In this document: in pieces, positions 8,132 to 35,653 of the stretch | Layout of the letters: each line of letters opens with the position of its first letter | Numbering within the stretch: the stretch's first letter is position 1 | Source of the DNA: a virus | Virus record (IMG/VR): IMGVR_UViG_3300042261_001653 | Location: 3,826 to 67,825 of that record | Length of the DNA: 64,000 bases | Direction: 5' to 3' (one strand) | Notes under the pieces: model-generated | What the model saw: only the letters and a program-made list of their open reading frames with translations | What the model was told of the DNA's origin: nothing | The model's database searches: none | Program-made: the position numbers and the translations under genes

Positions 8132-9499
8132 ATGGCATTACAAAAGATCAACGAAGCATTACTACAGGAAATTATAGCCAAGTATCAGTCAGATGAAAAT
8201 TTAAGCCTACTTAAGTTAGGGCAGATGTACAACGTCAATGTTGGAACCATAGAATACCAATTTAAAAAACGAAAAATAGTGACACATGCGAAGTTTAAAC
8301 GAAGCAAAAAATTTACAGAAGAAAAAATACAAGAAGCAATTAAGCTTTATCAAGAAGACGAAACATTAAATTTAACTAATCTTGGTAAACGTATAGGATT
8401 AAATAGAAAAATACTGCGTCATCATTTTTATATTCGCGGCATACCGATTCGGCAATTGCCATACGGCTATAACCGTAGAGAAATGCCTGAAGAGTTAATT
8501 CAAAAAATGATTCGTAATTATACGGAAAACAAGCAATTAACTTTAACGGCATTAGCTAAAAGCTTTGATCTTCCGACTTCTTATGTGTGTAAAGCCTTTA
8601 AAGAAAAAGGAGTAGAACTAGACTTAAAACGTGCCACGCATCCCAGACTAGCTGAAGACGAGCAAAAAGAAGTATGTCGGTTATACATGACAGGTGTAGG
8701 CGCACCTGAGTTATCAAAGAATTTCGATATAGGTCAAGATACGGTTATGAACTATGTTAAGAAACATGGCGGCGTAGGTCGAACTAGATCACAGCGTATG
8801 ACCAAATACAGTGTAGATACTTCTTATTTTGAAAAAATAGATACGCATAACAAAGCTTATTTTTTAGGTATGCTGATTACTGATGGATATTTAACAAGTA
8901 CTTCAAGTATAGGTATACAGCTACAAGCGCAAGATCATAACGTACTAGAATTCTTAAGAAACGACATTCAACTTGAACGGCCGTTGACTTATACAATACG
9001 AAAAAACCGTTGGGCTAAAGAAAGAAACGACCAAGGAGTAGCTATGTGTTATTCCTATATATTATCGATAATGAATGCAGAGTTATATCAGCAGCTATTA
9101 AAATTAGGAATTACACCAAGAAAAAGTTTAACATGTAAATTTCCTTCTTGTGTACCGAAAAAATATCTCATGAGTTTTTTATGCGGTGTATTCGATGGTG
9201 ATGGTTCGCTGCCGAAAGAGTATAAGCGTGCAAAGTATAATTTAGTTTTCTATGTTAGCACCGCTTTTGCAGTGGATTTAAAAAAAGTACTAGATGCCAC
9301 TTTTAATATATCTGCGACCGTTAGACAAGTAGGCAAAATCAGCACAGTGTCAGTGTACCGAGAATGTAGCATATATCAAATATTGAAGCAGTGCTATGCT
9401 AACCTAGACCCTAAAAATTGCGTTCAACGTAAATATTTACGCTTTCTCGAACTACGTAAAAAGCTAATTGAAAAAGGCCGAATTGCTTCAACCGATTAA
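8132..9499 (+). CDS. LAGLIDADG homing endonuclease with four N-terminal HTH repeats
   Basis: AYFLGMLITDG and SFLCGVFDGDGS; four ~57-aa helical repeats (I..Y.....L..L...F/Y.V/L). Confidence 0.85.
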   Translation: MALQKINEALLQEIIAKYQSDENLSLLKLGQMYNVNVGTIEYQFKKRKIVTHAKFKRSKKFTEEKIQEAIKLYQEDETLNLTNLGKRIGLNRKILRHHFYIRGIPIRQLPYGYNRREMPEELIQKMIRNYTENKQLTLTALAKSFDLPTSYVCKAFKEKGVELDLKRATHPRLAEDEQKEVCRLYMTGVGAPELSKNFDIGQDTVMNYVKKHGGVGRTRSQRMTKYSVDTSYFEKIDTHNKAYFLGMLITDGYLTSTSSIGIQLQAQDHNVLEFLRNDIQLERPLTYTIRKNRWAKERNDQGVAMCYSYILSIMNAELYQQLLKLGITPRKSLTCKFPSCVPKKYLMSFLCGVFDGDGSLPKEYKRAKYNLVFYVSTAFAVDLKKVLDATFNISATVRQVGKISTVSVYRECSIYQILKQCYANLDPKNCVQRKYLRFLELRKKLIEKGRIASTD

Positions 9500-12491
9500 C
9501 GTTGATATACTTAGACAAATGGATAATACCTATTTAGTCAATTCAGAGTTAAAGTTTGGAAAGCATAAGCACGACCTTGAGTTTCCAAAGAGCAACGACT
9601 TCTTTTCATTAACCTCGTCACTTATCCCAGGAATAGGTGGCGTTAATGCGGTTAGAGTTTTACTCGGTTCGAAATCAGCGGCCCAAGCAATAACTCTAAC
9701 CAATCGTGAAGCTCCATTGGTGCAAGCCAATGCTGGTGGTGATTCTGAGTCAGCGGTTAAGAAATACGGTAAGTGGTTATGCATACATGCCGCTGATGAC
9801 GGGGAAGTAGCGAGCATTACACCCGATGAATTGATTTGTAAGGAAAAAGGCAAGACCAAGGTATACGAGCTGTACAACAACTACAACGTGGGTCGCAAAA
9901 CCTACATGAGTAACTATCCTAAGGTGGCTATCGGGCAACGTTATAAGAAAGGGGATTTGCTCGCCACGTCCAACTATACAGACGACAAAGGTCAGCTAGC
10001 CCTAGGTATAAATTTAACAACAGCAATCGGTACGGGAAGAAAAGGCGCGGGCTTTGAAGACGCGATAATTTTATCTACTTCAGGTAGTCGCAAACTACAG
10101 TCTGAGCAACAAATTCGGCTGAGTGTAGAAAAAAAGTTTGGAGTCGACGTCAACAAGGGTAGGTACATCTCGCTGTTTCCCAACCGCTTCTTTAACAAGC
10201 AGTTAGATAAAATCGATAGCGACGGAGTAATTAAGGTTGGATCGAAAGTAGAACATGGCGATCCACTAGTCTTAGCGTTCACTCCTAAGGCCGTAAAAGC
10301 CACAGACTTGGCTCTGGGAAAATTGAGTAGCCTATTAAAGAATGCCTATACTGACCACGTAGTAATCTGGGATCACGAAGCGCCAGGTGAAATAGTTGAT
10401 GCTGTAAAAGCTGGCGAGCTTATTTCGGTTAACGTTAGATTCAACAACGCCATGATGGAAGGCGACAAACTCAGTAATCCCTTCGGCGCCAAAGGAACCG
10501 TGAGAATAATTCCAGACGCACAGATGGTTCAGCTTCCAGACGGCACAGTTCCAGATGTATTGCTCAATTCCATGTCAATTACCTCGCGCGTTGCGCCAGC
10601 CCTTGTATTGTCAATGGGCCTAGGTAAGGTTGCGCAAAAGACAGGCAAGCCGCAAATGTTTCCGCAATTTTCGAAAACTCCAAATTTGGCAGAAGTGGAG
10701 AAAACGCTCGAGAAACACGGCGTCAGTGAATTGGAAGAGGTTTACGATCCAATTTCCAATACGCATTTAAAGATGACTGTAGGCCCATTGTATTTTACAA
10801 GGTTAGTTCACAACGCAGAAGATAAGGTTAGCTATAAATCACAAGGGAGTGGCTATACGCTAGACGCCACGCCAGGTAAAACAAATGAAGAGGCAACCAA
10901 AAGAATAGGTAATTTAGGAACCACGGCATTACTTAGTCATGGCAGTGAAGAGGTACTAAAAGATTTCACATTAATTAAATCGCAAAAGAATGATGACTTT
11001 TGGCGGGCTATGAAATTAGGCCAGCCTCTTCCTGTACCTAAAGTGCCGCAAATATTTGAAAAGTTTATTGCTTCGTTACAAGGCGCAGGAATTAAGGTTA
11101 CGCAGCGAAATAATAAATTTCAACTGCTGCCGATGACCAATCAAGATATTGGTAAGATTTCCAAGCACGCCATTGACAATCCACTTACCTACAAGGTTAA
11201 AGAAGATCAGTTGATTCCTGAACCGGGCGGCTTATTTGATCCTGAAAAAACAGGTGTATTCGGTAAGGAGTACAACCACATTGATTTAAACTTCGCTATT
11301 CCTAACCCAATCTCGGAAGACTATTTGCGCAAGGTGTTCAAGGTAACTAAGTCGCAATATGAAAAGATGGTTACTTCGGGTGAGATTAAACAAAAACTAG
11401 AGGCATTGGATTTAACCAAAGAAATAACCAAGTATAAGGAATATCTCAAGTCTGGTCGTAGAACCGACCGTGACGATGCAGTAAAGATTCTTGGGTTTTT
11501 GCAGACCCTTAAGAAAAATAATATAACACCTAAAGATTTGCTATTGAACAAGTTGCCGGTTATTCCTGCTATTTTTAGACCAGTGGTTGCGCAAGGTGAC
11601 ATGACATTATCTGCTGATGTGAACTATCTGTACAAGGACATGATGCTGAATAATAATGCTTTGAAAGATACAGCTAATGTGCCTGAGCACGTGGTCGAGG
11701 AATTGAAGAAGAAGCAATATGAAGGTGCCAAAGCAATTTACGGCTTAGGTGATCCAATCAGCGTTAAAAATCAGGAAAAAGGGTTCAAAGGATTGCTGGC
11801 AAAAGTAATAGGGCTAAAAGGTGTCAGTCCTAAAACTTCAATGTTTCAAACCAGCGTAGTTAATCATTCGTTGGATTTGGTTGGCCGTGGTGTTGCGACT
11901 ACAGATGCCACGTTGCATATGGATGAAGCTGGGATGCCTCAAAACTTAATTTGGAGTCTATACAAGCCGTTCATTATGCGCAGGTTGGTTCAACGAGGGA
12001 TACCGGCAACCAAGGCTACGGAGTATATTGATTCGCGCAATCCATTGGCTGTTGAGGCGCTGCATGAAGAATTAAAAATTCGGCCTGGCATTATTAGTCG
12101 AGATCCAGCGTTGCATAAATTTAATCTTATGGGATTTTATTTAAAACCACACGCAGATCCTAAAAATAGTACTATAGCATTAAATCCATTAGTATTCAAG
12201 GGATTTAGTTTGGACACCGACGGTGATCAAGTTAATACTAATATTCCGGTATTAGAATCAGCACGCCAAGAGGTTATAGATAAGATGCTTCCTTCAAAAT
12301 GCATCGTGCACCATAAGACCATGAGCTTTGCACAAACACCTCAAAATGAAGGAGCTTTAGGGTTATACACGCTCTCTAAGCCATCCAAAAAAACCAAGGT
12401 GCACAAGTTTGCAAATGAAGCAGAGGTAATTAAAGCTTACAATTCTGGTTTGTTGCAACCCGACGATCAGGTAGAATTGGCGAATAAATGA
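9468..12491 (+). CDS. rpoBC: RNA polymerase beta C-terminal part fused to beta' N-terminal part (catalytic subunit)
   Basis: beta: SLTSSLIP..VRVLLG..QA, GFEDAI, GDKLSNPFGAKG, PDVLLN..ITSR, VGPLY..LVHNAEDK. beta': EPGGLFD, HIDL, LPVIPAIFRP, DVNYLY, LYKPFI, SRDPALH, LNPLV..FSLDTDGDQ. Confidence 0.95.
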   Translation: MKKAELLQPINVDILRQMDNTYLVNSELKFGKHKHDLEFPKSNDFFSLTSSLIPGIGGVNAVRVLLGSKSAAQAITLTNREAPLVQANAGGDSESAVKKYGKWLCIHAADDGEVASITPDELICKEKGKTKVYELYNNYNVGRKTYMSNYPKVAIGQRYKKGDLLATSNYTDDKGQLALGINLTTAIGTGRKGAGFEDAIILSTSGSRKLQSEQQIRLSVEKKFGVDVNKGRYISLFPNRFFNKQLDKIDSDGVIKVGSKVEHGDPLVLAFTPKAVKATDLALGKLSSLLKNAYTDHVVIWDHEAPGEIVDAVKAGELISVNVRFNNAMMEGDKLSNPFGAKGTVRIIPDAQMVQLPDGTVPDVLLNSMSITSRVAPALVLSMGLGKVAQKTGKPQMFPQFSKTPNLAEVEKTLEKHGVSELEEVYDPISNTHLKMTVGPLYFTRLVHNAEDKVSYKSQGSGYTLDATPGKTNEEATKRIGNLGTTALLSHGSEEVLKDFTLIKSQKNDDFWRAMKLGQPLPVPKVPQIFEKFIASLQGAGIKVTQRNNKFQLLPMTNQDIGKISKHAIDNPLTYKVKEDQLIPEPGGLFDPEKTGVFGKEYNHIDLNFAIPNPISEDYLRKVFKVTKSQYEKMVTSGEIKQKLEALDLTKEITKYKEYLKSGRRTDRDDAVKILGFLQTLKKNNITPKDLLLNKLPVIPAIFRPVVAQGDMTLSADVNYLYKDMMLNNNALKDTANVPEHVVEELKKKQYEGAKAIYGLGDPISVKNQEKGFKGLLAKVIGLKGVSPKTSMFQTSVVNHSLDLVGRGVATTDATLHMDEAGMPQNLIWSLYKPFIMRRLVQRGIPATKATEYIDSRNPLAVEALHEELKIRPGIISRDPALHKFNLMGFYLKPHADPKNSTIALNPLVFKGFSLDTDGDQVNTNIPVLESARQEVIDKMLPSKCIVHHKTMSFAQTPQNEGALGLYTLSKPSKKTKVHKFANEAEVIKAYNSGLLQPDDQVELANK

Positions 12492-13477
12492 ATTATTTAA
12501 CTGAACAAGATAAACAATACATTATAGAAAATGAAACGAAAATATCCGCCAAAGAATTAGCAGTTAAGTTTAATAAAAAAGTAGGAGCTATCCATCGAGT
12601 ATGGCGAAATAAAAACGAACCACGAAAAAGCAACTGGGGAAAGTTTATAAATTTAGATCCAGCGCCAATAATTGAGACTTATTGCGATGAAGGCTTATCT
12701 AAGCTTGAAACAGGTAAAAAACACGGCGTACCTGAGGGAGTAGTTACACGTATATTAAAACAACAGAACATCCCAATCCGAGATTTAACTGATTCGCATA
12801 AAAAGTACGATCTAAACGTAGACACATTTAAAGAGATCGACACACAAGAAAAAGCTTATTGGTTGGGGTTTTTATACGCAGACGGTTATGTGCACAAAGA
12901 ACGAGGAGAAGTAAAGTTATGTCTAGCAGATAAAGATTATGGGCATTTAGTTAAATATCAAAAATTCCTGCAATCGAATATTCCTATTAAATCAGATAAA
13001 GGTCCAACCAAAATTTTACATCCTTCCAGCAGACTAACCGTGTGCAACCGCAAATTCACAGATCATTTAATCGATAAGGGCTGTACGCAGGCTAAGAGTT
13101 TTACCACAGTTTTTCCAACGTGGCTAAAAGAGGAACTAATACCCGCGTTTATTTTAGGCTTAATGGATGGCGATGGCTGTGTGCGGGTAGCCCAACGGCG
13201 CTGTGCCGTGCAGTTTCTTGGAACATATAAAATAGTCCAACCAATCCACGACTATTTGTTAAAGCACGCAATTATTAAAACACCAAAACGAGTAATGTTT
13301 GACACACAATGTCCTAAGATATATACCGTAAATGTGTATGCCATCGCTGACATCTATGCACTATACGATCACCTCTATTCACAATGCCCTGTTTGGTTGG
13401 ATCGCAAGAAAGCTAGGTTCGAAGAGTTTTTTAAGATGCGTGAGAGTTTAGACATTGAGAAAGCAAAGCGTAAATAG
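12488..13477 (+). CDS. LAGLIDADG homing endonuclease with N-terminal HTH
   Basis: AYWLGFLYADG and AFILGLMDGDG. Confidence 0.88.
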   Translation: MNYLTEQDKQYIIENETKISAKELAVKFNKKVGAIHRVWRNKNEPRKSNWGKFINLDPAPIIETYCDEGLSKLETGKKHGVPEGVVTRILKQQNIPIRDLTDSHKKYDLNVDTFKEIDTQEKAYWLGFLYADGYVHKERGEVKLCLADKDYGHLVKYQKFLQSNIPIKSDKGPTKILHPSSRLTVCNRKFTDHLIDKGCTQAKSFTTVFPTWLKEELIPAFILGLMDGDGCVRVAQRRCAVQFLGTYKIVQPIHDYLLKHAIIKTPKRVMFDTQCPKIYTVNVYAIADIYALYDHLYSQCPVWLDRKKARFEEFFKMRESLDIEKAKRK

Positions 13478-15064: not shown

Positions 15065-15397
15065 ATGGATTTTAACGTGCTTAAATCGTTTCTGGAAAAA
15101 GCGGCTGCGGCTACCCCAGAATTACAAGATACTGTCGGTCAACTTCAGTCTATGCTGGCTGGACAAAACAAAAATCAGCCTACGCCTGAAGGTAAGTCCG
15201 TATTGAACCCGGAATTGAAAAAGAAAAAAGAAATTGAAGACATATTTCTTGGAAGCACGTTAAAAGATCTAGATAAGAAAGAGCAAACGTTATTTGGTCG
15301 CCGCCCCAAGATCAAAACTTCCATGCTGCAGATCATTTGCAAAAAGGCTGCAGATAAAGAATCATTGTTACGCATTCTATGCAAAAAACTACGGTAG
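15065..15397 (+). CDS. Hypothetical protein with K-x-A motifs
   Basis: SFLEKAA, CKKAA; overlaps start of beta'-C. Confidence 0.65.
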   Translation: MDFNVLKSFLEKAAAATPELQDTVGQLQSMLAGQNKNQPTPEGKSVLNPELKKKKEIEDIFLGSTLKDLDKKEQTLFGRRPKIKTSMLQIICKKAADKESLLRILCKKLR

Positions 15398-17277
15398 GTA
15401 AAATACTTCTTAAGTCTCACCTACCCGCCGACCTGCATCCACTCATTGATGAACTGGAGTTGGATAAAAGCGGCACAGGTAAATTGCTATCTGCGCTTTA
15501 CGAGAAGCATCCCAATGACTATGCGACGATTCTATCTAAGTTGCATTTGTTAGGCTTCGATACTTCCGCTAGATTAGGTTCAACAGTATCCATCGCAGAT
15601 TTACATTCACCAATCGACAAAGAAAAAGAATTTGCAGCACTTGAAAAAGAGTTGCAAACGGCCGAAAAGCTAGAAGGTAAGGCCAACCAGGATCGAGAAA
15701 AATTAAAGATATTTGGTCAGTTCAACGATCGCATAAATAAAGCCTTGGTTGACGTTGGTGTAGCTAAAGATCAAACGCTGTCTAAGATTGTAAAAGCTGG
15801 CGCCCGAGGATCACCGACTCAATTAAGGCAGACTATTTTCGCTCCGGTATTGGTAGCGGATCAACAAGGCCACCCAATTCTAGATAAGCCGATTAAAGCC
15901 AGTTATGCTGAAGGCTTAAGTTTACCTGAATATTTACTGTCAGCTTTTTCTGGGCGTGCCGGTTGGGTAGGAACTAAACTATCCATTGCTGATTCAGGTT
16001 TCCTGTCCAAGCAGTTAGCTAGAGGTATCATGCAGCTGCAAGTGGAGGAAACAGATTGCAACACACCTAATGGAATTTCAATTAGTGTAGACGATAAAGA
16101 ATATATAGGTACATTTTTAGCTAAGCCCGCAGGTTCATATAATCGCAACAACGAAGTGACGGCTAAAGTATTGGCGGATCTACGAAATAAAGGCGTATCT
16201 TTTATTGTAGTCCGCAGTCCGATTACTTGCACAGCCAGCAGACATTATCACACAGGGGCTGTTTGTGCCATGTGTTGTGGTAAGCGTGAAAAAGGATTAC
16301 CTAAGATTGGTGACTATGTAGGGCTTACTGCAGCCACTGGAATTAGCGAAGGGTTGTCGCAGGGTAGCTTAAGTTCAAAGCATTCAGCGGGCTCCGTAGC
16401 AACCGCAAATGTGGCTTCTGGTTATGACCTAGCTAAACAGTTGCTTGAAATACCTGAAACATTTAAAGGTAAAGCTGCAACAGCTGCGCATGAAGGTGCA
16501 GTAAAAAATATACATACCAATCCTCAAGGTGGTTCAACTATAACCGTAGCCCAGACTGACGGTAAACAAGCTGATTATTATGTGCCTACTGGTTTGGCTG
16601 CTAAGGTTAAAGTTGGTGACCAAGTTGAAGCTGGAGACGTCATGTCGGAAGGTATTCCCAATCCTTACGAAATAGTAAAGTATAAAGGAATAGGTGAAGG
16701 TCGCAAACATCTAGCCAATGCTCTGCGTGAAGCTGCTGAATCAGGTGGTATATCTGGCGTAAGTAAAAAGAATTACGACATTGCTGCTAGAGGCTTATTA
16801 GACCACGTATTAATTACTCACCCAGAGGGTTTAGGCGACCATGTTCCAAACTCAATAGTTTCTTATCAAGCTATTGAAAAAAATTATACGCCTAGGGAAA
16901 CAGCTAGGAAAACCTTAGTAGACGCAGCCGTAGGTATGTATCTGGAAGAACCAGTACTGCATTTAACCATTGGCACCAAAATTACTCGTAAACTAGCCGA
17001 CTTCTTAAAGAGCCACGGAGTACAATCCGTCATTGCTCATCCGCAGTCACCTGGGTTTGAACCTGAAATGATTAGGTTAGGCGCATTGCCTGAACACGTT
17101 GATGATTGGATGACTGGCTTATATAGTACACATTTGGAACGTAAATTGATGCATGCCGTAAATAATGGAATGACTTCAGACGTAGAAGGTTATCATCCAG
17201 TACCTAGAATTGCTTTTGGGTCTATTGGTGCCAAACGCGCAGAGGAGATAGATCAAGCCCCTTCTTATACGCTCTAA
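15379..17277 (+). CDS. rpoC: RNA polymerase beta' C-terminal part (bridge helix, trigger loop)
   Basis: TTVGKIL, GARGS..QLRQ, SYAEGLSLPEY..S..GRAG...T..SIADSGFLSKQL, DC.T..G, RSPITC..VCAMCCG, GDYVGL.AA.GISEG.SQ.SLSSKH. Confidence 0.95.
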   Translation: MQKTTVGKILLKSHLPADLHPLIDELELDKSGTGKLLSALYEKHPNDYATILSKLHLLGFDTSARLGSTVSIADLHSPIDKEKEFAALEKELQTAEKLEGKANQDREKLKIFGQFNDRINKALVDVGVAKDQTLSKIVKAGARGSPTQLRQTIFAPVLVADQQGHPILDKPIKASYAEGLSLPEYLLSAFSGRAGWVGTKLSIADSGFLSKQLARGIMQLQVEETDCNTPNGISISVDDKEYIGTFLAKPAGSYNRNNEVTAKVLADLRNKGVSFIVVRSPITCTASRHYHTGAVCAMCCGKREKGLPKIGDYVGLTAATGISEGLSQGSLSSKHSAGSVATANVASGYDLAKQLLEIPETFKGKAATAAHEGAVKNIHTNPQGGSTITVAQTDGKQADYYVPTGLAAKVKVGDQVEAGDVMSEGIPNPYEIVKYKGIGEGRKHLANALREAAESGGISGVSKKNYDIAARGLLDHVLITHPEGLGDHVPNSIVSYQAIEKNYTPRETARKTLVDAAVGMYLEEPVLHLTIGTKITRKLADFLKSHGVQSVIAHPQSPGFEPEMIRLGALPEHVDDWMTGLYSTHLERKLMHAVNNGMTSDVEGYHPVPRIAFGSIGAKRAEEIDQAPSYTL

Positions 17278-22686: not shown

Positions 22687-23381
22687 TGAACACGGACATT
22701 TCACATTTACACGATTTACCTTTGCCGGACCATCTTCGTGGTTTTCATGACCCGGATAAAACTAGGCAGTGGATGCGCGAGAATGTGGTAAATGCGTTCA
22801 ACGAACATTTAAATAAAATTGAGACGCCGGACTTTAAATTAAGAGTAAAGAATATCCAAGTAGAGGATCCAAATAAACGGTTTACTCTAAAAGAGCAAAA
22901 GCAAGCGGTATTGGAACGTAAGAGTTTAACCAATACCATTAAAGGTGACATTGATTTGCTTAATAAAAAAACCGGCGAAGTAACAGGCACCAAGAAAAAT
23001 ACAGTCATTGCGCACCTACCTTGGCTTACGGATAGAAATACAGTTATTCAGGGTGGCAATGAATATCAGCTGCAAAATCAGCAACGATTAAAGCCCGGCA
23101 TTTTTACTAGGTTAAAAGAGACCGGTGAAGTAGAAGCGCACTTTAGCCCTGAAGCTGGTTCTGGTTTAGGTGGTAAGCTTATTATGGATCCAGCTAAAGC
23201 TACTTTCGTATATGAAATTGGCTCAGCGCAAGTAGGCTTATACGGCTTCTTAAAAGATATGGGTGTATCTGACGAGGAGATGAAACAAGCTTGGGGTGAC
23301 GAAATCTGGCTGGCGAATAAAAAGACTTACAAGGGCAATGAAGTTGACAAGTTCTACGCCAAAGTGTTTTCTTACGATTAG
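22686..23381 (+). CDS. rpoB: RNA polymerase beta N-terminal fragment
   Basis: IAHLPWLTDRNTVIQGGNEYQLQNQQRLKPGIF resembles beta [33 protein letters not shown]; ends GFLKDMGVSDEEM. Confidence 0.85.
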   Translation: MNTDISHLHDLPLPDHLRGFHDPDKTRQWMRENVVNAFNEHLNKIETPDFKLRVKNIQVEDPNKRFTLKEQKQAVLERKSLTNTIKGDIDLLNKKTGEVTGTKKNTVIAHLPWLTDRNTVIQGGNEYQLQNQQRLKPGIFTRLKETGEVEAHFSPEAGSGLGGKLIMDPAKATFVYEIGSAQVGLYGFLKDMGVSDEEMKQAWGDEIWLANKKTYKGNEVDKFYAKVFSYD

Positions 23382-23998: not shown

Positions 23999-24339
23999 TT
24001 GTTTTAGTCTTAGCTTGTTCCTGGGCCTCTGTGTGTTTTATCCTTTTACATACAGAGGCCCTTATTGAATATATAAAGGTCTTTCAATTATCTCGTTTTT
24101 TCTTCTTATCCGACTTCGACGAAATTAAGCAAACCTCGCCGAGCATGACTTATATTTCGTTCCTACTGGAATACCACAACAACTTCTTTACCCGTTTATT
24201 AGCCTGTCCAGCTTGTTTGGCGTTCTGGTTAAACCTGTTAGGCTGTGTAGCGATGCCTTGGTATTATTTAGGTTGTAGCTACTTTTTCACACTGATATTT
24301 TATTTCACCTTGGTTATACTGAGTAAATGGCACAATTAA
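23995..24339 (+). CDS. Membrane protein, DUF1360-like
   Basis: Hydrophobic helices and LLACPACLAFW motif. Confidence 0.55.
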   Translation: MIVLVLACSWASVCFILLHTEALIEYIKVFQLSRFFFLSDFDEIKQTSPSMTYISFLLEYHNNFFTRLLACPACLAFWLNLLGCVAMPWYYLGCSYFFTLIFYFTLVILSKWHN

Positions 24340-26180: not shown

Positions 26181-29100
26181 ATGGCTACTTTAACATACAC
26201 AAAAGCACCGCAAGTTAACATAGGCGATAAAATACTCAGCCACCAATATAATGCGCTTGCGAAAGCTTTTAATGACCGCATAAATGGCGGTGCTGCCGAT
26301 GTAGCTTACCGTATTTGGTGGTATGCACATTCATTGGTTAGAGGTATTAGGCTACCAATGGACGAATATAATTGGCCAGCTACAGATGAATGGTGGAAGG
26401 TGTTTGGCCCTTTAAATCCATTAGGATCCGAACAGTATATGTGGCCGGCTGAAGCGGGGCCTGGAGAACCTGGAGGAGCGAATGTATCCAATCCATTGGC
26501 CGGCTTTGTATTCGGACAAGAAACAAGTAAATTACTCAGTGAGGCCGACCGTATTTACATTAATAAATTAGACGATAATGTAATTCCGACTAACGAGTAT
26601 ACTGGGGATTTCCTTAAAGTTTGGAATCACGCCAAAGATCAACGCGGCTACATAAATTCCAAACCGAGTTTTCAAACAAATGCACCTATTTACCAAATGT
26701 CGAGGTATCTAGGTAACGTGCAATACAGCCAATTATCGCCATTTTTAAAATCGTATTCTACATTTAGACCAACACCATATAGCAATAAAAATGTAAAATG
26801 TACCAAGACTAATAGGCTAAAATACTCTTACAAGTTTATGCCCTTGGTTCCGGGTAAGCCAATACTCGAAGCAGGTACCTGCCAAGGAGAAAACGGGCAT
26901 ATCCAATATATTCATTACAGCGAAAATGCGTATATATTGTATTTCAGTGGCGCAAGCCCCTTTAACGATCCTTATAGTATTCCACCAAAACCAGCTGCGA
27001 TAGTTAGCTTACTTTATTCTGACTATTTGGAAACCGGCTCAACTGGTGGCGGAGTATTTACTAAAGTTAAAAGTGAGCATTTTGATCAAATCGTAAACAA
27101 CTATATTTGCGATGCTAGAGGTACCGAAACGGAATTAATAGCCAATAGCTTTGATATCCGTCGCACTGGTTTCAATTTCGAAAAATTCTTCACCACGCAA
27201 TTTCGGTTATCTCCGGCGGTGGGTACGTATAAAAAAGTTAACGGCACTTATATTGCGACGGAAGATATGACGTCGTACCCAGCCTTTGCGATATTGCCTG
27301 TTCTTAAAAATACGGAGTATATTTCCGAATACACCACCAATGAGCTAAATAAAAAAACATTTAAAAGAATAGACGCCACAGGCTACCGATGTAACAACGA
27401 GGTGGTGGCTATTTGTGGTTATCCTTACGGAACACCCAAGTATGTCACAAGTTCTAACACAACTACGGGCTATGACGTACAGTTCGAGACTATAGGTTGC
27501 TTAGGCGGTTACATGGTCGCTTATGAAGGTCTAACAAAACAAATAGCTATAGATATCGTGGATTGCCCACCAGCGGTTAATGGTGTGGAACAACCTGAAG
27601 TATCACTGATACCTGACAGTGCAAAAAACGATACAATACGCGGAATTAAAGCGCTTTGGTTACGGGCTGGCAGACGACAAGAAGCAACAACAACAAGCTC
27701 ATTGCCTTTTAGTCTAATTCATTATTTTGATAGTCCAACAAGACCCGCAGATAGAGTAAAAGTAAAAATTATTGCTATTGATGATGACGATCAAGACGCA
27801 AAAATAACGTTTACGACATCAGTTGGTTTTGTACATGTCGAACTGTTACAGCAACTATATTATCTACCGGATATTTTGGATGCCTACACCGTATTACGTT
27901 TAGGTTCAACTAATGGACTTCCTAGCTCCACTGGTTTCGATACGTTTATGTATGGCGTCAACGGTACAGCTGTGCAAACTATTTACGATAATTATTATAA
28001 GTACGGCGTGGTGCATAACAGCGTGGCGTCTATTGGTGTAGCGGATGATCACTTAAATGTAAATTCAACCTACGAATCTACACGTAAATTCATCAATGAT
28101 AACTTACGTATGATTCCAAGAGCGCAGCTGACCGGATACGGCGTAATAACGGATCCAAATACAAACGTAGAAAAATCGGTACTATACTTCCGCAAAACAA
28201 TTGCGAATAGATATAACGGCATAGCTGGTGCAGAATTTACAGATATATTGTATCCCTTAGTTACAAGTGATATTACTTCTTTAGTGAAAATACCGGCTAA
28301 AACGGATTTAATTGCCGGGCAGCCTTACATTGTATCTCAAACTACTTCTGACTTATGGATGCCATATAGAGCATACACCAACGAGACTGTACCAGCACCG
28401 TACTATAAAGTTAAATTAAGCTACGAACCTGGCGATTATGTAATTTATGCTAATCAAACTTATGCTCCACGGTCGGTTATAACTGGTGCGTCACAAACAG
28501 AACGTGCGTCTGCATCTTTTTCGCCTACAGTAAATGTACCTATAACTTTGCTTTTTAACCAAAACGGGCTAATGGTTAAAAATAAAGACATTACTGCTAT
28601 TATCGCAGCACAAGAAGATGCGGGCATGATCCTTCCATTAAAGCTGACTTACGACTGGTACACCATACCTGAAGACAAACCAGCGTCTGAACAAGCCAAT
28701 CCTAACGCAGAAGTTAATAACGGTTACAATTACTTTATATATCGCGATGCTGTATTGCGTAATGGTGGGGCGGTAGAAACTGATACTGTTGCTTCACCCA
28801 ACAGTGTTGATATGAAGTCTGGACGTTATGCCATTCAGTATAAATATGAAGGTGGAGCTATATACGGATATTATTACTTCAATGATACACAAGCAAATCA
28901 AGCGGACTTCATTAATAAATATTCGCAAGTAACTTATCGATTACAAGTAGTACCTAAGGTTATTGCCAGCTCAAGTAAAGTAAAGGTGCTGCCACAATAT
29001 AACGTGTTGCCGTTAACTTTAAATATCACTGGTTACGCGGCTAATAAAAAATATAAGATTGTACGCTTAACTGGTCCAGCCTCAGCCATAGTTGAAAAAG

Positions 29101-32100
29101 TACTCGTGGCCTACTATCAAGCACAGCAGTACACTGATGCATTAAACGATGTAGATGTTTATACAAGCAACGTAGCTGGACAAATACCAGGTATAACAAA
29201 AGATTCTGAAACTCAACAATGGCACAGGGTATACTGGACTACTGACAATGGGACCACTTGGACTAAGGGAAGTTTTACTTATGCTGAAAGGCATGCTACT
29301 GTTTGGTATGACTCAGTAGAAAAACAGTATCTCGGTGAATCTCAATTAGTTCCGTATGCCACAACTTATACAGTTGGCACTACGGATTATAAGGCTGTTG
29401 TTGCATATCGCGTAACAGGTGAAAATGTCGAAGGCAACGGTGTAAGTTATCAAGAGTTCACCTATTACCAAGACATACCTAGTATTTGGACTACGATTAG
29501 TAAATCGGTCAATGCTCGGTTTGTTTGGGGCAGCGCTACCATGGCCGAGCTATTAAAGATGGTCTCTTTGACTAATAAAGATTTACGAACAACAGGTAAT
29601 GTAAAAATAGAGCAATACTTTGCTGGTTTATTTTCAGAGCAATACGACATAGATGCAATACTCGGCGATAATCCCGCGAATTACAAAAATTACAATGTAC
29701 TGCACAAAGAAATATCCACGTATAGCTGGGCTGGGCCTGGAAACGCCATAGGAGGCTCGCTTCAAGCTTCCATACCGGTTGAAAATCAAATCGGAACAGC
29801 CTTACCTACAGCATTAAGCGTATATAAATTATACTCAGGAAAAGAGCGGGTAGCTTTTTCAAACGGAACCGGTATTGTAGAAAACAGCAACTACTTGGTT
29901 AAAAGCAATAACACCGCGAATTACGTAACGTATAATAATCAAAAATACTGCGCTGGTGAAACGTTTATAGGTGGAACTGCAACTACGTACGATGTGTCAG
30001 ACCCCAGTGTAGTGATATTTTTAGTTGAATCAAATCTTACAGGTTCTTCTAATTTCGAAATATTCGGAGGCATGTTAGGTAAAACGGTAATGGATGGTAC
30101 GGCTACAGAGTCGGGTGATACTTATGCCGATCATTCAGATCATTTGCTTACTTCTGACGATTATACTGATTCTGTGGTATACGCCGTAACCACTGGTAGT
30201 GTTACTTACAAAGAAGCAGGCGCCACGAAAACGGTAGGAGCGGGAGGTACCTTTGTTTGGAATAAAGATTGTAGCTTATTTAAACGAGTTAACGGCACTG
30301 AGCCAGTCGTAATACAGATAAACGGGATAATTAAAAAAGCGCCTAGGAACGGCACATCCAATGAATGGTCCATGTTTGCGGGATTCAATCATTACAATCC
30401 ATCAAATAGTTCAGTTTGGAAAACCGATAATTATGGTGATATTTTACCGGTACTACACAATCGCTGTCATGTCGACTCGTACAATTTAGGCTATAAGGAG
30501 AAGTACGAAACTTTACGTAATCAATTTGCGTATGGTAACGCGCCAATCATGGTTTCAGAAGCTTCACCTGGTTATACTTATCTAGATGGTGTAATCGGCA
30601 CAAATGCGAGTAGAGATTTTTTCAGCAGTTGCCAGATTTATACTCCACCTGCGCAATTGGAATCAGTCAAACTACTTCCAGCTCAGAGTACGGACAGTAT
30701 TTGTACCGGTGGTATGGATTACGACCAAGTGGTGATGACTTTTACCGGCCGGTTGCAACATGCAAAAATTACCACTTCTTCTACTAGAGCTATAAACGCG
30801 CATATTGGCGCTGGAACTACGGCTAGTTGGACAGCATTAAAAAAAGATCTGGAATTAGAAACATATCGCACAGATGAAAATGGCATTAGAGAGTATTTAT
30901 GCGGCATTATAGGCAATGGCTTACATAATCAATTTCCAGACAATCTCGCTACGCCGGGCTATGAATGTCGACGAGGCTTAATAGGTGATCAAGCTCCAGA
31001 CGGTGATCTTTATCATTCAGGTGATTCACCATTTGGTTGCTGCCATCCTAGGTTTTATTTTATTAGGAATGTTAGGAAAGTTTATCAAGATAATAACGAC
31101 ACTGTGGATCTAAACATAGATTCACATATGTTAGCTTATGACTTTCGAGTAATGGAGTTTTATTTAAGAGCTATGTGCGGAGGGTTCTTAAATTTAGCAG
31201 CAACCAAGGTCAGCGATTACTGCGTTGAAGGATACGAAGACTCGTTTTACGCTGACTATACTTTTGAAGAATTATGCTACCAAGGCATGCAGCAACTAGC
31301 AGTTCCTAAATGGGTTTGTGGCGAGGATGCGGAATGTACAGTAGAAGTAAATAAGCCACCGAATGAATTTGCAGTATCTGCCGTGGGTGTACGATTCCAA
31401 TTTAGTGTACCTGCAACGTTACATGGCACAAGTAAACCGGTAGCCCTTTACGCTAATTCAGTTACATTTGTTACCGTAGACGAAGAGACTTCTGTGAGTT
31501 TTGAAGATGGAGGTTGGCGAACAGTTGAGGCTGCGTTTTTAACTAATCCAGCTGGAACGCAGTTAGAATTTACAACTACGTTAACGTGGGAAGGGAAACA
31601 GGCCTATTATACTATTTTCCAACTCAAGTACGACGACGACGTTACAATAGACATAACAGGGTATGTGATAGGTCAAAAGCATATTCTGTATTTCCCATTT
31701 TTAGCGTCAGAAACATTAAATACACAACGCTACGGTTATTCGTATCAAACTACTGTGGTTAGTGCCAATACCGGACAAATTACAATAAATAACTGGACAG
31801 CAACTACGACCACCTTTTTTGATAAAGAGCATGCTTGTAAGGATGGCTGCACGTATTACACAGACTATTGTAAAACATTGCCAGATAGTTGCGCACCTAC
31901 CGGTAACATCGGCTGCGCGAACGTAAATTGTAGTTATACGATAGAATCGGTTAATGCCAAAGGTTTGCTGGGTACAGAAATGCTGGATAAACCAGGGTTT
32001 ATTGCTTGTGCCGTAAGCTACAACGTAATCGACACGATAGACGTTGAGTCCAACATTGTAGGTAGTGAGTCAAATCCAACGTACACGTTAAATTGGCCGA

Positions 32101-34256
32101 TGTCCTATGGCTCTGTTTATGACGTATACGTAAGTTTTGCTACTACCACTCCAGTGCCACCCGGTGATTGGGCAAAATTAACAGCTGACGCCAAAAGTCC
32201 AATCACCTATCGTAAAAGTGATCTTATTGAGACTACCACTGAAGATGTAACCGATTATGTTGAATATGGTGGGTTGGTTCTTGTACCAAATAGAACCAAC
32301 AATCCGACGTTGGTATTTCCAAAGTTTACGCCGAATATTCAATCTGACGTAGACACTAACGGTGTCACCTATTATTACATCGCAGGCGAGGAGCTAATTC
32401 CAGATGTTGCGACTCCTGGTGCTGGGTTAGAAAAAGCCCCAAGTGTGGCCTTGATTGTAGAGCCTGCAGATAGGGGTGAAACAACTAAAACTATTATTTC
32501 TCAACCGAGATTTAATAATGCTTCGCCTGCTGTGGTTGGTGGAGCCTTTGTGGGTGCTAGGATACTTTCTGGCGGTGTATTCACAGCTATCAATGTGAAG
32601 GCGCGGTTGGTTCTAGGTTTACCGTTAAATGTAACGTTTAACGATTTGACAGCTGGTGAAGCCTACGTTGTTACCCGTACAGACACAATTGAAACTGTTG
32701 AAAACAATCAAACAACAAGCATAGCAACGACCATAACTGTAGGAGAAATTTATGCACCTGCCGGTAACACCTCTGCAAGTATAGTGGACCCTTTTGACTA
32801 TGATCCTCGAGTGACTAAAATGGAATGGGCCATAAATACCAGAGATGGCGTAAGTGTTGGTTGGCATACAGCAGAAGAAATAAATAAAACGGGTATCAAA
32901 TATTATGCTTATTTATTAGATACTTCAAAACCGGAATCTGACGCTGAGCCATATAATCCAAAAAAGTTAATAGCTGCCGGCGAAACAACGTCTGACGTTA
33001 ATTTAAAAACTTTTACATCACCAACAACTTTTCCGGCAACGCTTAATTCAGTTATCAATTCAACAAATCCTGAATACCGGCAAGTATATATGCAGGCGGA
33101 ATGGACTAAAAATACAGGTGAACCTAAATTTCAAATTAGGGTTAGACCAGCTTTATTGAAAAACCGAAGATTTTCACCATTAACCATGGCACTAAGATAT
33201 GACCGGCCTAAAGGATTTGGTATGGTGCCGTATACTTGTGCATATGCTGAAATGTTTAATTACTACAGTGGTTGCATAAACCTATTAACTAAATGCCGCG
33301 TAGATCTTCCAGTAACTTACCAATATCGGTTAACTGAAAAAACTAGTTGTAAGACTGTACCAAAAATAACTACAGGTGTGGTAGTGGGCGCCGGTGATGA
33401 GTCAACATACTGGTTTGATAGGGTTTATCGTGGAGTTGGAGAACAAACAGGTTGGACTTCAAATTATGTGTACACACAAACAGAGCATTCCAACTGGACT
33501 AGTATTGTTTTAAACGCAACTTTTGCAGAATTAATTGGCGCCAATAAACGGGGTGTGCATGAATCCAATACATACGCCACTAGGCTTCGAGAAGTTAACA
33601 ATGAGATTTTAGAATCGGAGTTGTTAAATATCACCACAAAGCAATTTATTGAATTCAAGGTAGTATTGGGAGAGGTAGTTAAAGCAATACCGGACATCTT
33701 GCAAAACCTAGTAGGAAAGAATGTGTTAATCACTATTGCTGAAGGTCATAACCCCGATAATCTAAGTAGTACCGTAACACAAAAAATTTCAGAAGCAAGT
33801 GACGATGATCCAAATTGCTATGTGCGTAACTCTGATGGAACCTATAATTATGGTGAACCCCCAGCTGAGGTTATAACAACAATAGACGATCCGAGTAATC
33901 CGAGCGTAAAGCGTATAACAAAAAGAATCAAATACCGATATCTAACCGATATAACTAAAAGCATTCCTTCTCCAATGGTTTGGCAACAGGTTATTAAAGA
34001 TGGAAAAGATCGGAGTAAAAAGGTGTTGCTAACCACTACAGAAATTTACAGCCCGGCAAAATGCACTACGTTTTTAAATAAAATTGCGCTTCCACCGACA
34101 CCAGCTGGAGATTTATTATATTACACAGCTGTACCGGTTAATGGAAGTGTGTTTACAGTTGATGCTGCGAATATTTCAGGTCTAAGTTACACTCGCGCAG
34201 ACCTTTCATCTATATTGTTTTATATCGACGTACCCTTTACTGCTTACACGCCATGA
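26181..34256 (+). CDS. Very large (2691 aa) putative tail/baseplate structural protein
   Basis: Uninterrupted 8-kb ORF, Thr/Tyr/Val-rich beta composition. Confidence 0.75.
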   Translation: MATLTYTKAPQVNIGDKILSHQYNALAKAFNDRINGGAADVAYRIWWYAHSLVRGIRLPMDEYNWPATDEWWKVFGPLNPLGSEQYMWPAEAGPGEPGGANVSNPLAGFVFGQETSKLLSEADRIYINKLDDNVIPTNEYTGDFLKVWNHAKDQRGYINSKPSFQTNAPIYQMSRYLGNVQYSQLSPFLKSYSTFRPTPYSNKNVKCTKTNRLKYSYKFMPLVPGKPILEAGTCQGENGHIQYIHYSENAYILYFSGASPFNDPYSIPPKPAAIVSLLYSDYLETGSTGGGVFTKVKSEHFDQIVNNYICDARGTETELIANSFDIRRTGFNFEKFFTTQFRLSPAVGTYKKVNGTYIATEDMTSYPAFAILPVLKNTEYISEYTTNELNKKTFKRIDATGYRCNNEVVAICGYPYGTPKYVTSSNTTTGYDVQFETIGCLGGYMVAYEGLTKQIAIDIVDCPPAVNGVEQPEVSLIPDSAKNDTIRGIKALWLRAGRRQEATTTSSLPFSLIHYFDSPTRPADRVKVKIIAIDDDDQDAKITFTTSVGFVHVELLQQLYYLPDILDAYTVLRLGSTNGLPSSTGFDTFMYGVNGTAVQTIYDNYYKYGVVHNSVASIGVADDHLNVNSTYESTRKFINDNLRMIPRAQLTGYGVITDPNTNVEKSVLYFRKTIANRYNGIAGAEFTDILYPLVTSDITSLVKIPAKTDLIAGQPYIVSQTTSDLWMPYRAYTNETVPAPYYKVKLSYEPGDYVIYANQTYAPRSVITGASQTERASASFSPTVNVPITLLFNQNGLMVKNKDITAIIAAQEDAGMILPLKLTYDWYTIPEDKPASEQANPNAEVNNGYNYFIYRDAVLRNGGAVETDTVASPNSVDMKSGRYAIQYKYEGGAIYGYYYFNDTQANQADFINKYSQVTYRLQVVPKVIASSSKVKVLPQYNVLPLTLNITGYAANKKYKIVRLTGPASAIVEKVLVAYYQAQQYTDALNDVDVYTSNVAGQIPGITKDSETQQWHRVYWTTDNGTTWTKGSFTYAERHATVWYDSVEKQYLGESQLVPYATTYTVGTTDYKAVVAYRVTGENVEGNGVSYQEFTYYQDIPSIWTTISKSVNARFVWGSATMAELLKMVSLTNKDLRTTGNVKIEQYFAGLFSEQYDIDAILGDNPANYKNYNVLHKEISTYSWAGPGNAIGGSLQASIPVENQIGTALPTALSVYKLYSGKERVAFSNGTGIVENSNYLVKSNNTANYVTYNNQKYCAGETFIGGTATTYDVSDPSVVIFLVESNLTGSSNFEIFGGMLGKTVMDGTATESGDTYADHSDHLLTSDDYTDSVVYAVTTGSVTYKEAGATKTVGAGGTFVWNKDCSLFKRVNGTEPVVIQINGIIKKAPRNGTSNEWSMFAGFNHYNPSNSSVWKTDNYGDILPVLHNRCHVDSYNLGYKEKYETLRNQFAYGNAPIMVSEASPGYTYLDGVIGTNASRDFFSSCQIYTPPAQLESVKLLPAQSTDSICTGGMDYDQVVMTFTGRLQHAKITTSSTRAINAHIGAGTTASWTALKKDLELETYRTDENGIREYLCGIIGNGLHNQFPDNLATPGYECRRGLIGDQAPDGDLYHSGDSPFGCCHPRFYFIRNVRKVYQDNNDTVDLNIDSHMLAYDFRVMEFYLRAMCGGFLNLAATKVSDYCVEGYEDSFYADYTFEELCYQGMQQLAVPKWVCGEDAECTVEVNKPPNEFAVSAVGVRFQFSVPATLHGTSKPVALYANSVTFVTVDEETSVSFEDGGWRTVEAAFLTNPAGTQLEFTTTLTWEGKQAYYTIFQLKYDDDVTIDITGYVIGQKHILYFPFLASETLNTQRYGYSYQTTVVSANTGQITINNWTATTTTFFDKEHACKDGCTYYTDYCKTLPDSCAPTGNIGCANVNCSYTIESVNAKGLLGTEMLDKPGFIACAVSYNVIDTIDVESNIVGSESNPTYTLNWPMSYGSVYDVYVSFATTTPVPPGDWAKLTADAKSPITYRKSDLIETTTEDVTDYVEYGGLVLVPNRTNNPTLVFPKFTPNIQSDVDTNGVTYYYIAGEELIPDVATPGAGLEKAPSVALIVEPADRGETTKTIISQPRFNNASPAVVGGAFVGARILSGGVFTAINVKARLVLGLPLNVTFNDLTAGEAYVVTRTDTIETVENNQTTSIATTITVGEIYAPAGNTSASIVDPFDYDPRVTKMEWAINTRDGVSVGWHTAEEINKTGIKYYAYLLDTSKPESDAEPYNPKKLIAAGETTSDVNLKTFTSPTTFPATLNSVINSTNPEYRQVYMQAEWTKNTGEPKFQIRVRPALLKNRRFSPLTMALRYDRPKGFGMVPYTCAYAEMFNYYSGCINLLTKCRVDLPVTYQYRLTEKTSCKTVPKITTGVVVGAGDESTYWFDRVYRGVGEQTGWTSNYVYTQTEHSNWTSIVLNATFAELIGANKRGVHESNTYATRLREVNNEILESELLNITTKQFIEFKVVLGEVVKAIPDILQNLVGKNVLITIAEGHNPDNLSSTVTQKISEASDDDPNCYVRNSDGTYNYGEPPAEVITTIDDPSNPSVKRITKRIKYRYLTDITKSIPSPMVWQQVIKDGKDRSKKVLLTTTEIYSPAKCTTFLNKIALPPTPAGDLLYYTAVPVNGSVFTVDAANISGLSYTRADLSSILFYIDVPFTAYTP

Positions 34257-34920: not shown

Positions 34921-34936
34921 TTCAATTAATTATACC
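34921..34936 (-). promoter_or_regulatory. Conserved phage promoter-like motif GGTATAATTAATTGAA (copy 1 of 7)
   Basis: Identical at 42714-42729 and 48601-48616; variants at 41782, 44369, 46611, 48331. Confidence 0.7.
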
Positions 34937-34963
34937 ACTTACGGAGCAGTATAATTACCCGGG

Positions 34964-35653
34964 TTATGCCTCAGGTATTTTAACTGTAGAATTAAGTACC
35001 TTGTCGTGTGAAACCCATTCCAAATCACCGTTGTTATTTTTCATCACGCGATACAGTTTTCTATCCCTACCTTTAGCTACGCCTTGATTAATATAATTCG
35101 TTACACCAATACGCGTAGATTCAACAACCAAAGCTGGATCGAAAAATCCAAACGAGCTACTGCTTAGTTGCCGGGACTCGTCAGGTATCGCCGATTCGGA
35201 TATGCCTCCGGTACCTACCTTCGTCACCTTAGAAGAATCACTAAGAATGGCAATTGGATTGATACCTTCTACGGAACTGCTAAGCGAGTTACCGATAACT
35301 GTAGACCTTAGCTGTGGGGTAAAGAAACCTGAGTGCCACCAGTCCAAATTTCGTTTTTGACGTATTTTAAGCTGGGCTTTCTTTTGCAGCCTCCCAGCAT
35401 CCTTGGCGATGTGCTCATGTAAATAATCTTCAAAACCTAGAAACGACGAGAACTTAAGATTGTCGCGATCATCTGGTTTGGCTTTATTATTGGAGACTGC
35501 GATGATTTTTTTCGAGCTATCCAACATCGATTGCAACGAGATACTGGCGTAAGGATGATTTAAAGTTTGACCTGTAACAGAGGGGTCTAGCCGAGTACCT
35601 GCCAACCACTTCTTCAGTTTTTCTATTTTTTCAGCTTTTGTTAGGGTGGACAT
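34964..35653 (-). CDS. rpoB: RNA polymerase beta middle fragment (fork/Rif region)
   Basis: PDDRDNL (DDIDHL), INPIAILSDSSKVTKVGTGGI ([21 protein letters not shown]), FGFFDPALVVESTRIGV (YGRVCPIETPEGPNIGL). Confidence 0.85.
   Translation of the reverse strand: MSTLTKAEKIEKLKKWLAGTRLDPSVTGQTLNHPYASISLQSMLDSSKKIIAVSNNKAKPDDRDNLKFSSFLGFEDYLHEHIAKDAGRLQKKAQLKIRQKRNLDWWHSGFFTPQLRSTVIGNSLSSSVEGINPIAILSDSSKVTKVGTGGISESAIPDESRQLSSSSFGFFDPALVVESTRIGVTNYINQGVAKGRDRKLYRVMKNNNGDLEWVSHDKVLNSTVKIPEA

Follow-up and report, generated by a model that had tools for sequence, protein, structure and literature searches.

Introduction

The available text on phage-encoded multisubunit RNA polymerases (RNAPs) describes the enzymes of the phiKZ type as having β and β′ cut into several genes and as lacking α, ω and a recognisable sigma factor, and phiKZ-like phages as carrying two paralogous sets of split RNAP genes (PMC7598289). 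In phiKZ and AR9 one enzyme is reported there to be packaged in the virion (PMC7598289, PMC7824862). A closer system is a pair of genes of Salmonella phage Arash (180.8 kb): gp206, of 1525 aa, annotated "RNA polymerase subunit beta", and gp216, of 606 aa, encoded 4.8 kb downstream. The part of the Arash paper available to us names gp206 "subunit beta" with no comment on a fusion, and reports that in Arash virions gp206 gave the most spectra of all proteins (3516), that gp216 gave 1210, and that the helicase gp217 and the sigma factor Gp10 were detected (PMC10585845). Here we report on four genes, designated A, B, C and D, that lie in 64,000 nucleotides of viral DNA (positions 3,826 to 67,825 of IMG/VR virus record IMGVR_UViG_3300042261_001653; hereafter the window) and that together span bacterial-type β and β′ subunits. 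The four-piece layout is a real, conserved and new variant of phage multisubunit RNAP, and the enzyme belongs to the Arash-type fused family in all but a contiguous β N-terminus.

The record that contains the window is 67,825 bp long and is estimated to be 33% complete, so the genome would measure about 200 kb; near-complete relatives of the phage have 182-204 kb. The label "jumbo phage", used in a preliminary description of this DNA, is therefore borderline.

Results

Four intact genes span β and β′

The four genes are intact open reading frames (ORFs) at the positions first described (Table 1), and each is present once in the 67.8-kb record. As bacterial references we used Salmonella rpoB and rpoC, whose products equal those of E. 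coli in length (1342 and 1407 aa), and the alignments agree with the E. coli coordinates that had been estimated by eye. Together the pieces cover residues 93-226, 400-597 and 645-1337 of β and about 7-68, 160-549, 569-1028 and 1170-1286 of β′, a coverage that includes lobes, fork, flap, clamp, bridge helix and trigger loop. The stretches left uncovered are what we take to be the sites of insertions specific to the E. coli lineage, together with the β′ zinc ribbon. When compared with the Rpb1 and Rpb2 families of Pfam, pieces C, D and B gave matches. The strongest PHROG matches were phrog_24349 and phrog_25354, families without a name that each span about 1200 positions (E 3e-37 to 7e-42, the phrog_25354 matches being at E 6e-41 and 7e-42), while families annotated "RNA polymerase beta subunit" matched more weakly (E 2e-9 to 3e-21). 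Among the best 60 PDB sequence matches for C and for D, every chain listed was that of a cellular RNAP.

Table 1. RNAP genes of the window and the genes that surround them (positions in the window).
Feature	Position	Strand	Description
Piece A	22686-23381	+	231 aa; β N-terminal, equivalent to E. coli/Salmonella β ~1-250 (part of the β1/β2 lobes)
Piece B	34964-35653	-	229 aa; β middle, equivalent to β ~385-620 (fork / Rpb2 domain 3, GxGG loop)
Piece C	9519-12491	+	990 aa; β C-terminal part fused head-to-tail to β′ N-terminal part; both double-psi β-barrels
Piece D	15379-17277	+	632 aa; β′ ~569 to end; bridge helix and trigger-loop regions
SNF2-family helicase	6635-8071	-	Pfam SNF2-rel_dom and Helicase_C; divergent from piece C
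LAGLIDADG homing endonuclease, free-standing	8126-9499	+	LAGLIDADG_3, phrog_4645 E 7e-45; between helicase and C
Second LAGLIDADG homing endonuclease	12488-13477	+	LAGLIDADG_3, phrog_4645 E 5e-47; overlaps C stop codon
733-aa protein after D	17348-19549	+	context marker
HNH/DUF723-type endonuclease	35911-37173	-	phrog_681 E 1.5e-53, phrog_559 HNH E 3e-41, DUF723; directly upstream of B
Ribonucleotide reductase	38335-41421	+	1028 aa; LAGLIDADG_3 at aa 556-618

In piece C the end of β and the beginning of β′ form a single chain, in which Pfam recognised Rpb2_6 (124.4 bits), Rpb1_1 (46.7 bits) and Rpb1_2 (49.4 bits). The gene was first placed at 9468-12491; the ORF is indeed open from a TTG at 9468, and only its start had to be corrected. 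The ATG at 9519, 20 nt past the stop of the upstream endonuclease gene, is the more likely start, because it yields a protein of 990 aa, the length of the database gene call P0003, and because a start at the TTG overlaps that upstream gene. Read from the ATG, the protein begins at about β 633 (its residue 13 corresponds to β 645), follows β to about residue 1337 and passes without a linker into β′ at about residue 7; its β′ part covers 160-549 of Salmonella β′ (E 5.6e-27). The N-terminal zinc ribbon of β′ is missing, as had been noticed from the letters: a "...GLF...KEY" segment that corresponds to β′ ~50-68 is followed without a gap by NHIDL, and aa 516-625 of C hold no Cys. Both catalytic barrels carry their signatures. 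In the β-barrel, GDKL...GAKG of C aligns with GDKM...GNKG of β, and the two active-site lysines, K334 and K342 (numbered from the TTG), are invariant in 21/21 C sequences. In the β′-barrel, S-L-D-T-D-G-D-Q aligns with NADFDGDQ of Salmonella, and D916, D918, G919 and D920 of the metal-binding DxDGD are likewise invariant in 21/21; the consensus across the C sequences is GADxDGD, where the window has SLDTDGD. The closest relative of the window's C is P0004, with 76% identity.

Piece D takes up β′ where C leaves it. It matches Pfam Rpb1_5 (58 bits) and, by BLASTP, residues 569-1028 and 1170-1286 of Salmonella β′, its first residue corresponding to β′ 569, and its bridge-helix and trigger-loop stretches align to those of β′. 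In 12/12 relatives searched D was found as a single copy, 1.5-3 kb downstream of C.

The two small genes account for the remainder of β and lie 10 kb (A) and 22 kb (B) from C, on opposite strands. Piece B matches Pfam Rpb2_3 at 22.0 bits (cut-off 21), and its residues 17-206 align with Salmonella β 400-597 (hhalign E 3.6e-11, probability 97.2%). Residues G147, G149, G150, R161, D172, E178 and G183 of B are invariant in 16 sequences. Piece A matches residues 71-211 of a cyanobacterial β (phmmer E 1.9e-4). Its AlphaFold2 model has a mean pLDDT of 71.5, and the best 50 PDB matches listed for that model were all bacterial RNAP β chains (E 1e-10 to 3e-8, TMq 0.31-0.38), a crystal structure of the β1-β2 domain of M. 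tuberculosis among them. Both genes were stand-alone ORFs with end-to-end alignment and conserved ends in 10/10 relatives fetched, at 44-50% identity for A and 47-54% for B, so that the same split points recur in related contigs. When the complex of C aa 1-540 and B was predicted with A as partner, the score was 0.85 over three runs, and 0.77 in the control in which chain 1 had been replaced, so that the prediction counts neither for nor against binding.

The pieces tile a two-gene enzyme of cultured phages

A tblastn search of a phage collection with C gave single-stretch matches over 94-98% of the query in Arash and in the Vibrio phages D69, D181 and D148, whose genomes are of about 187 kb. 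D69 carries the same gene pair as Arash, its fusion being VPHD69_0261. By BLASTP, A matches gp206 aa 20-210 (E 8e-21), B aa 240-470 (E 2e-18) and C aa 482-1525 (E 1e-123), and D aligns along the whole of gp216 (E 4e-65). None of the pieces overlaps another or has a terminal extension left unaccounted for, and on gp206 the ends of A, B and C come so close, to a dozen residues or less, that neither intein halves nor additional docking domains would fit between them. Arash resembles the window also in joining the end of β to the start of β′ in one chain (as does D69), in the position of the β′ cut near residue 569 (gp216 aa 4 aligns to D aa 2), in a zinc-ribbon stretch that is likewise short and, where aligned, contains no Cys, and in a nearby homologue of the helicase, gp217. 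The two differ in that the whole β N-terminus is inside the 1525-aa chain of Arash whereas the window has two separate genes of about 230 aa for it, and the identity over the full length is 28-30%.

The preliminary description had set a chain that keeps both barrels together apart from the layouts of cyanobacteria, of Helicobacter and Wolbachia, and of phiKZ and AR9. Sequence databases do hold precedents for such a chain: gp206 of Arash and VPHD69_0261 of D69 are fusions of a whole β to β′-N. The four-piece enzyme is thus less exceptional than was first thought, a chain that joins the barrels being already in GenBank and common in metagenomes. The fused forms are found in Arash and D69 and dominate among environmental relatives, so the window represents a derived sub-branch of a sequenced Arash-type family, which itself appears to be undescribed: we found no published description of a β::β′-N fusion or of the four-piece layout, although supplementary contig lists might include such contigs.

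To see how widely the layout occurs among relatives, 30 virus records were searched with gp206. A, B and a C of about 1000 aa were present as separate ORFs in 16 of them (the window's record, G001 and 14 of a further 21), a full fusion of 1457-2553 aa in four, and a three-piece type (A::B, C and D) in another four; three records had C and A only, as fragments, and three had C only, beside a contig end. In the three-piece form, represented by G026 and G028, a 502-aa ORF spans gp206 aa ~19-505 and thus unites A with B, and C is an ORF of its own from aa ~478. Five relatives, of 182-204 kb, reach a completeness of 90% or more, one of them with terminal repeats, and all five hold exactly one set of pieces. 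The four genes therefore represent a single polymerase rather than two: they are free of overlap, lie flush on the Arash proteins and are single-copy in the record and in 5/5 near-complete relatives.

Database proteins gave the same picture. The best 120 matches to C all had Rpb2_6 and at least one Rpb1 N-terminal domain; 111 of them were 916-1032 aa long, the other nine 1328-1689 aa, four with LAGLIDADG marks, and the contigs that carry these matches reach 233 kb. Eight C clusters sourced from NCBI were looked up and had no informative name, two being labelled "hypothetical protein". A full scan with piece B returned 994 cluster representatives at E <= 1e-3, of which we classified the best 150, in classes that are blurred by metagenomic gene calls ending early. 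The B-like stretch was internal to a protein of at least 1380 aa in 92 of these representatives. Eleven were proteins of at most 300 aa, three were B with insertions and 20 were of middle length; 15 ended within 50 aa of the B-like stretch, and in nine this stretch was N-terminal in a longer protein. Four long representatives that contain B were scanned with Pfam: three are a fusion with inteins, the fourth has β domains and an intein without an Rpb1 domain, and Rpb1_5 was found in none of the four. Judged from these gene calls, the fused form is the diverse and common form of the family. An apparent layout in which A is separate and B is joined to C may be an artefact of truncated gene calls; a search of IMG/VR with P0266, a long protein with an N-terminal B-like part, matched nothing.

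An unrooted tree of the C region was inferred from 32 rows by a quick IQ-TREE search. The four-piece rows formed one branch with SH-aLRT 100 (12/12 rows), and the two three-piece rows formed a branch of their own (SH-aLRT 100) that grouped with ten two-piece rows (97) and not with the four-piece rows. A repeat with 18 of the 32 rows under LG+G4 left this picture unchanged (6/6 four-piece rows together). On this evidence the four-piece layout has a single origin. To our knowledge β is contiguous in every cellular RNAP, so the simplest reading is that the cuts are derived. An AU test of the three-piece and four-piece forms as a single clade gave p-AU 0.0445 with 18 rows, a borderline value for a group that was named post hoc; the cut between B and C may have arisen once or twice.

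Comparison with other split and fused polymerases

The four-piece layout is, as first described, unlike those of phiKZ and AR9, of cyanobacteria and of whole rpoB-rpoC fusions. With phiKZ and AR9 the window shares, as far as the available text on these phages goes, a phage multisubunit RNAP with split β and β′, a β′ cut past the barrel and no α (PMC7598289, PMC7824862). There are also differences: these phages have two sets where the window's clade has one (5/5 near-complete relatives), and they keep β and β′ on separate chains and have no recognisable sigma, whereas in the window's clade the two are joined and relatives carry sigma-70-family ORFs. The window's pieces are also far closer to cellular RNAPs than to enzymes of the phiKZ/AR9 type. 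Residues 23-28 of D align with residues 10-14 of cyanobacterial RpoC2, which places the β′ cut of the window within about 15 residues of the cyanobacterial cut between γ and β′; in cyanobacteria, however, β is whole and separate from β′, while in the window β is cut and joined to the β′ N-terminal part. Helicobacter and Wolbachia have fusions of the whole of rpoB and rpoC. As we understand these fusions, the C-terminus of β is joined to the N-terminus of β′ just as in C, but they contain all of β and β′, whereas C has only the halves that bear the barrels and leaves the outer parts to separate genes.

The cut between B and C falls at β ~620-633, between the fork domain (Rpb2_3) and the next domains, a position presumably close to that of the archaeal cut between B″ and B′, and the cut between A and B falls at what we take to be a dispensable insertion of E. 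coli β. Engineered split sites exist in E. coli β. The β cuts of phiKZ-type enzymes differ from the archaeal one, according to the available text (PMC7598289). A published filter for phages with such polymerases (mReC), as given in the part of the source available, asks for separate β and β′ matches of at least 800 aa each and for NADxDGD in β′ (Weinheimer & Aylward 2020); unlike the mReC phages, the window would fail it, with its β′ cut at ~569, the N-terminal part of β′ within a fusion and the motif SLDTDGD.

The enzyme lacks a detectable α and is unlikely to be sigma-independent

The preliminary description had suggested that the enzyme may be independent of both α and sigma. Homologues of α (PF01000, PF01193) were found in 0/5 near-complete relatives, with controls positive in 14/14 genomes, in keeping with this part of the suggestion: no platform of the α-dimer kind was found among the genes of these relatives (ω was not searched), although α could be borrowed from the host. 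The part on sigma is not supported. In full, the suggestion would be of an enzyme that works without a sigma-70-type factor and without α, like the non-virion RNAPs of phiKZ and AR9, and that has an unrelated specificity subunit or none. The lack of a sigma gene in the window and its 67.8-kb record, the missing α genes and β′ zinc ribbon, and the example of the phiKZ-type enzymes, which in the available text have no α, ω or recognisable sigma (PMC7598289), would fit such an enzyme. The record, however, represents only 33% of a genome, and four-piece relatives do encode sigma factors of the extracytoplasmic-function (ECF) type: with the NCBIfam model sigma70-ECF (cut-off 42.9 bits) a 175-aa ORF of G022 scores 71 bits and a 213-aa ORF of G012 58.7 bits, an ORF of G015 remains below the cut-off at 37.2 bits, and G007 has a sub-threshold RpoD-like ORF. 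Of five near-complete relatives, two thus have sigma-70-family ORFs above the cut-off and two more have sub-threshold ones. Sigma factors are annotated in the Arash genome too, and one was detected in its virions, as the available text states (PMC10585845). The β flap region is kept in the alignments. The C alignment to β′ 160-549 covers the location that we assume for the clamp helices. With sigma factors in the four-piece relatives and in Arash, sigma-independence is unlikely, and the α- and sigma-less enzyme set out above seems to us a poor prospect.

The best-scoring sigma sub-families in the relatives are of Bacteroidota type. In the 60 nt upstream of 42 window genes, inspected by eye, no obvious shared motif and for most genes no clear Shine-Dalgarno sequence was seen. 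The sigma sub-families and the missing Shine-Dalgarno sequences are hints of a Bacteroidota host. A short TATA-like stretch precedes the start of piece B in several relatives, and that of piece C in the window, by 8-12 nt. The family of T7-like single-subunit RNAPs, PF00940, had no match in the five near-complete relatives, nor in any control genome.

Endonucleases and inteins around the polymerase genes

Homing endonuclease genes flank C on both sides and an HNH/DUF723-type endonuclease gene lies directly upstream of B (Table 1), and the LAGLIDADG domain within the ribonucleotide reductase is probably an intein. The endonuclease genes beside C are absent from those places in G001 (locus L008), so they arrived recently and did not originally bring about the cuts. 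The relatives carry no endonuclease gene at their cut points, so that the link between endonucleases and fragmentation is circumstantial.

Inteins occur in relatives within B and within C, and probably also within D. In G017 (C1:50825-53146, minus strand) D is part of a 783-aa ORF in which the matching halves are about 140 aa apart at D residue ~333, an interruption that may be a mini-intein. Three homologues of B of 371-573 aa (P0127, P0129, P0131) align with it in two parts that between them extend to both of its ends, so that in some phages B appears to carry insertions, probably inteins. Locus L011 (8561-16219, record G004) has a 2553-aa ORF that comprises the full fusion with an in-frame insertion of ~480-520 aa near DHDGD and extends some 570 residues beyond the usual end of the β′ N-terminal part. 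In locus L027 of record G010, and likewise in G011, G017 and G018, C is broken inside DxDGD into two ORFs (2896-5691 and 5723-7444). The intein sits between the D and the T, the would-be +1 residue, of DxDGD, and the first ORF ends 13 codons past the first Asp. The second ORF, 32 nt on, encodes 573 aa with an intein-splicing match of 27.7 bits (below the cut-off), a LAGLIDADG domain and, after these, the final ~100 aa of β′-N. The interruption is a candidate for either a split intein with a very short N-terminal fragment or a decayed intein.

These inteins raise the question of whether the pieces of the window could be rejoined covalently, by trans-splicing of split inteins or by splicing of RNA, so that there would be fewer mature chains than genes. 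Inteins are rife in the family, one of them broken into two ORFs in DxDGD itself, and LAGLIDADG genes flank C. No intein or Hint family, however, was found in any of the four pieces (E <= 0.01), the pieces end flush on the fused homologue, neither the window nor L027 has an intron family, group I or group II, that attains its Rfam gathering score, and A, B and C are kilobases apart and on different strands. Covalent rejoining therefore appears highly improbable. Comparable cases of genes in pieces made by homing endonucleases are the split nrdA of phage Aeh1 and "fractured genes" with split inteins (PMC3045599, PMC2677866). They resemble the window in having an essential phage enzyme gene in separately translated pieces within a setting rich in homing endonucleases and inteins, and they differ in that the window's pieces are far apart and the relatives' cuts have no endonuclease gene. 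The traffic of endonucleases and inteins near the RNAP genes is of a kind that is able to break and move genes, as in Aeh1 nrdA.

Other features of the neighbourhood

The SNF2-family helicase is 36% identical to gp217 of Arash, has the same place beside C in G001 and is likely to be a transcription accessory. The 733-aa protein shares 42% identity with the ORF that follows D in G001, and its N- and C-terminal parts weakly match gp218 of Arash, annotated as structural (E 5e-8 and 6e-5). Two ORFs of 615 aa (24327-26174, plus strand) and 2691 aa (26181-34256, plus strand) have no Pfam or PHROG match at E <= 0.001 and share the plus-strand gene run with C, D and A. A tmRNA gene at 47557-47976 (minus strand) was recognised by Rfam as full-length (RF00023, 111.7 bits, all 374 model positions), whereas ARAGORN reported no tRNA or tmRNA in the window.

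Discussion

It is quite likely that A, B, C and D together encode one predicted, catalytically competent bacterial-type core with two barrels, derived from the two-gene Arash-type family. The ancestor would have had a whole β fused to the N-terminal part of β′, with the remainder of β′ as a second chain; the β N-terminus would then have been cut at two surface-permissive points, and the two resulting small genes, A and B, moved several kilobases off and onto opposite strands. Homing-endonuclease and intein traffic may have supplied the breaks by which the genes were fragmented and moved. The core would be assembled from the four chains without covalent links, the pieces associating like the corresponding segments of the bacterial enzyme. 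By homology with Arash it would be a virion component that is injected to launch early transcription, with promoter specificity given by phage-encoded ECF-like sigma factors. As the sole set found it may be the only RNAP of the phage, which would also serve later in infection with phage sigma factors.

Several points weigh against this account or weaken it. Piece A has no match in Pfam, and its residues 82-205 align with Salmonella β 93-226 weakly (hhalign E 6.9e-4, probability 26.7%); piece B, modelled alone, folds poorly (mean pLDDT 52.5). That the four chains assemble and transcribe together is a prediction. Virion packaging is known from Arash, whose proteins are ~29% identical, and is carried over to the window by analogy. 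The absence of a sigma gene from the window and the record, about one third of the genome, counts here as well, and that the sigma factors of the relatives act on the phage enzyme rather than on that of the host is something we infer. Several of the 30 records are near-duplicates, G007 and G016 scoring identically and likewise G010, G011, G017 and G018, so that the independent lineages are fewer than 16. Gene order, finally, sets the window apart. In the other 15 four-piece records B(+) is followed by A(-) 5-14 kb on, by C(+) 7-22 kb further and then by D(+), an order that none of them shares with the C(+), D(+), A(+), B(-) of the window. The local order of helicase, C, D and the 733-aa gene is common to the window and G001, and a single inversion of that segment would give the window's order. 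Such a large inversion would explain the difference, as far as gene order tells.

That the small pieces are decaying remnants, or that the four genes come from two polymerases with partners outside the window, could be imagined since the window holds about a third of the genome and phiKZ-like phages carry two paralogous split sets in the text available (PMC7598289), yet in 10/10 relatives, at 44-54% identity, the ORFs are unbroken, keep their ends and share invariant motifs, each piece exists in one copy with no overlap, and none of the 5/5 near-complete genomes has an intact β N-terminus elsewhere, so that, with the catalytic residues invariant, we set decay, misassembly and a second polymerase aside as scarcely credible.

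If the four genes do encode one core, a further-reaching view may be offered, which we put forward as a speculation with a rather low chance of being right. The family could be a third, undescribed lineage of phage multisubunit RNAPs, an α-less, ECF-sigma-dependent and virion-carried minimal enzyme of bacterial type, whose core tolerates repeated re-cutting. The three-piece and the four-piece clade would perhaps each have acquired the β cut at ~620-633 on their own, and smaller chains would perhaps have been selected because the enzyme must be packaged and then ejected through the tail. If this were true, the heavily split virion RNAP of phiKZ would be a parallel case.

Phage multisubunit RNAPs serve to ask which parts of the universal transcription enzyme are needed and how it is assembled. 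The present family provides one near-bacterial RNAP in natural versions of two, three and four pieces, and its proteins can be aligned with bacterial structures that have been solved. With no detectable α gene, a missing zinc ribbon and sigma-70-type factors at hand, it makes α-independent assembly, minimal contacts between sigma and core, and permissive cut sites testable. In public metagenomes the family is plentiful, forming hundreds of sequence clusters, and its cultured members, Arash and the Vibrio phages, are open to genetics and to biochemical work on the virion. It also displays the remodelling of an essential gene by homing endonucleases and inteins, one of which lies within the catalytic DxDGD.

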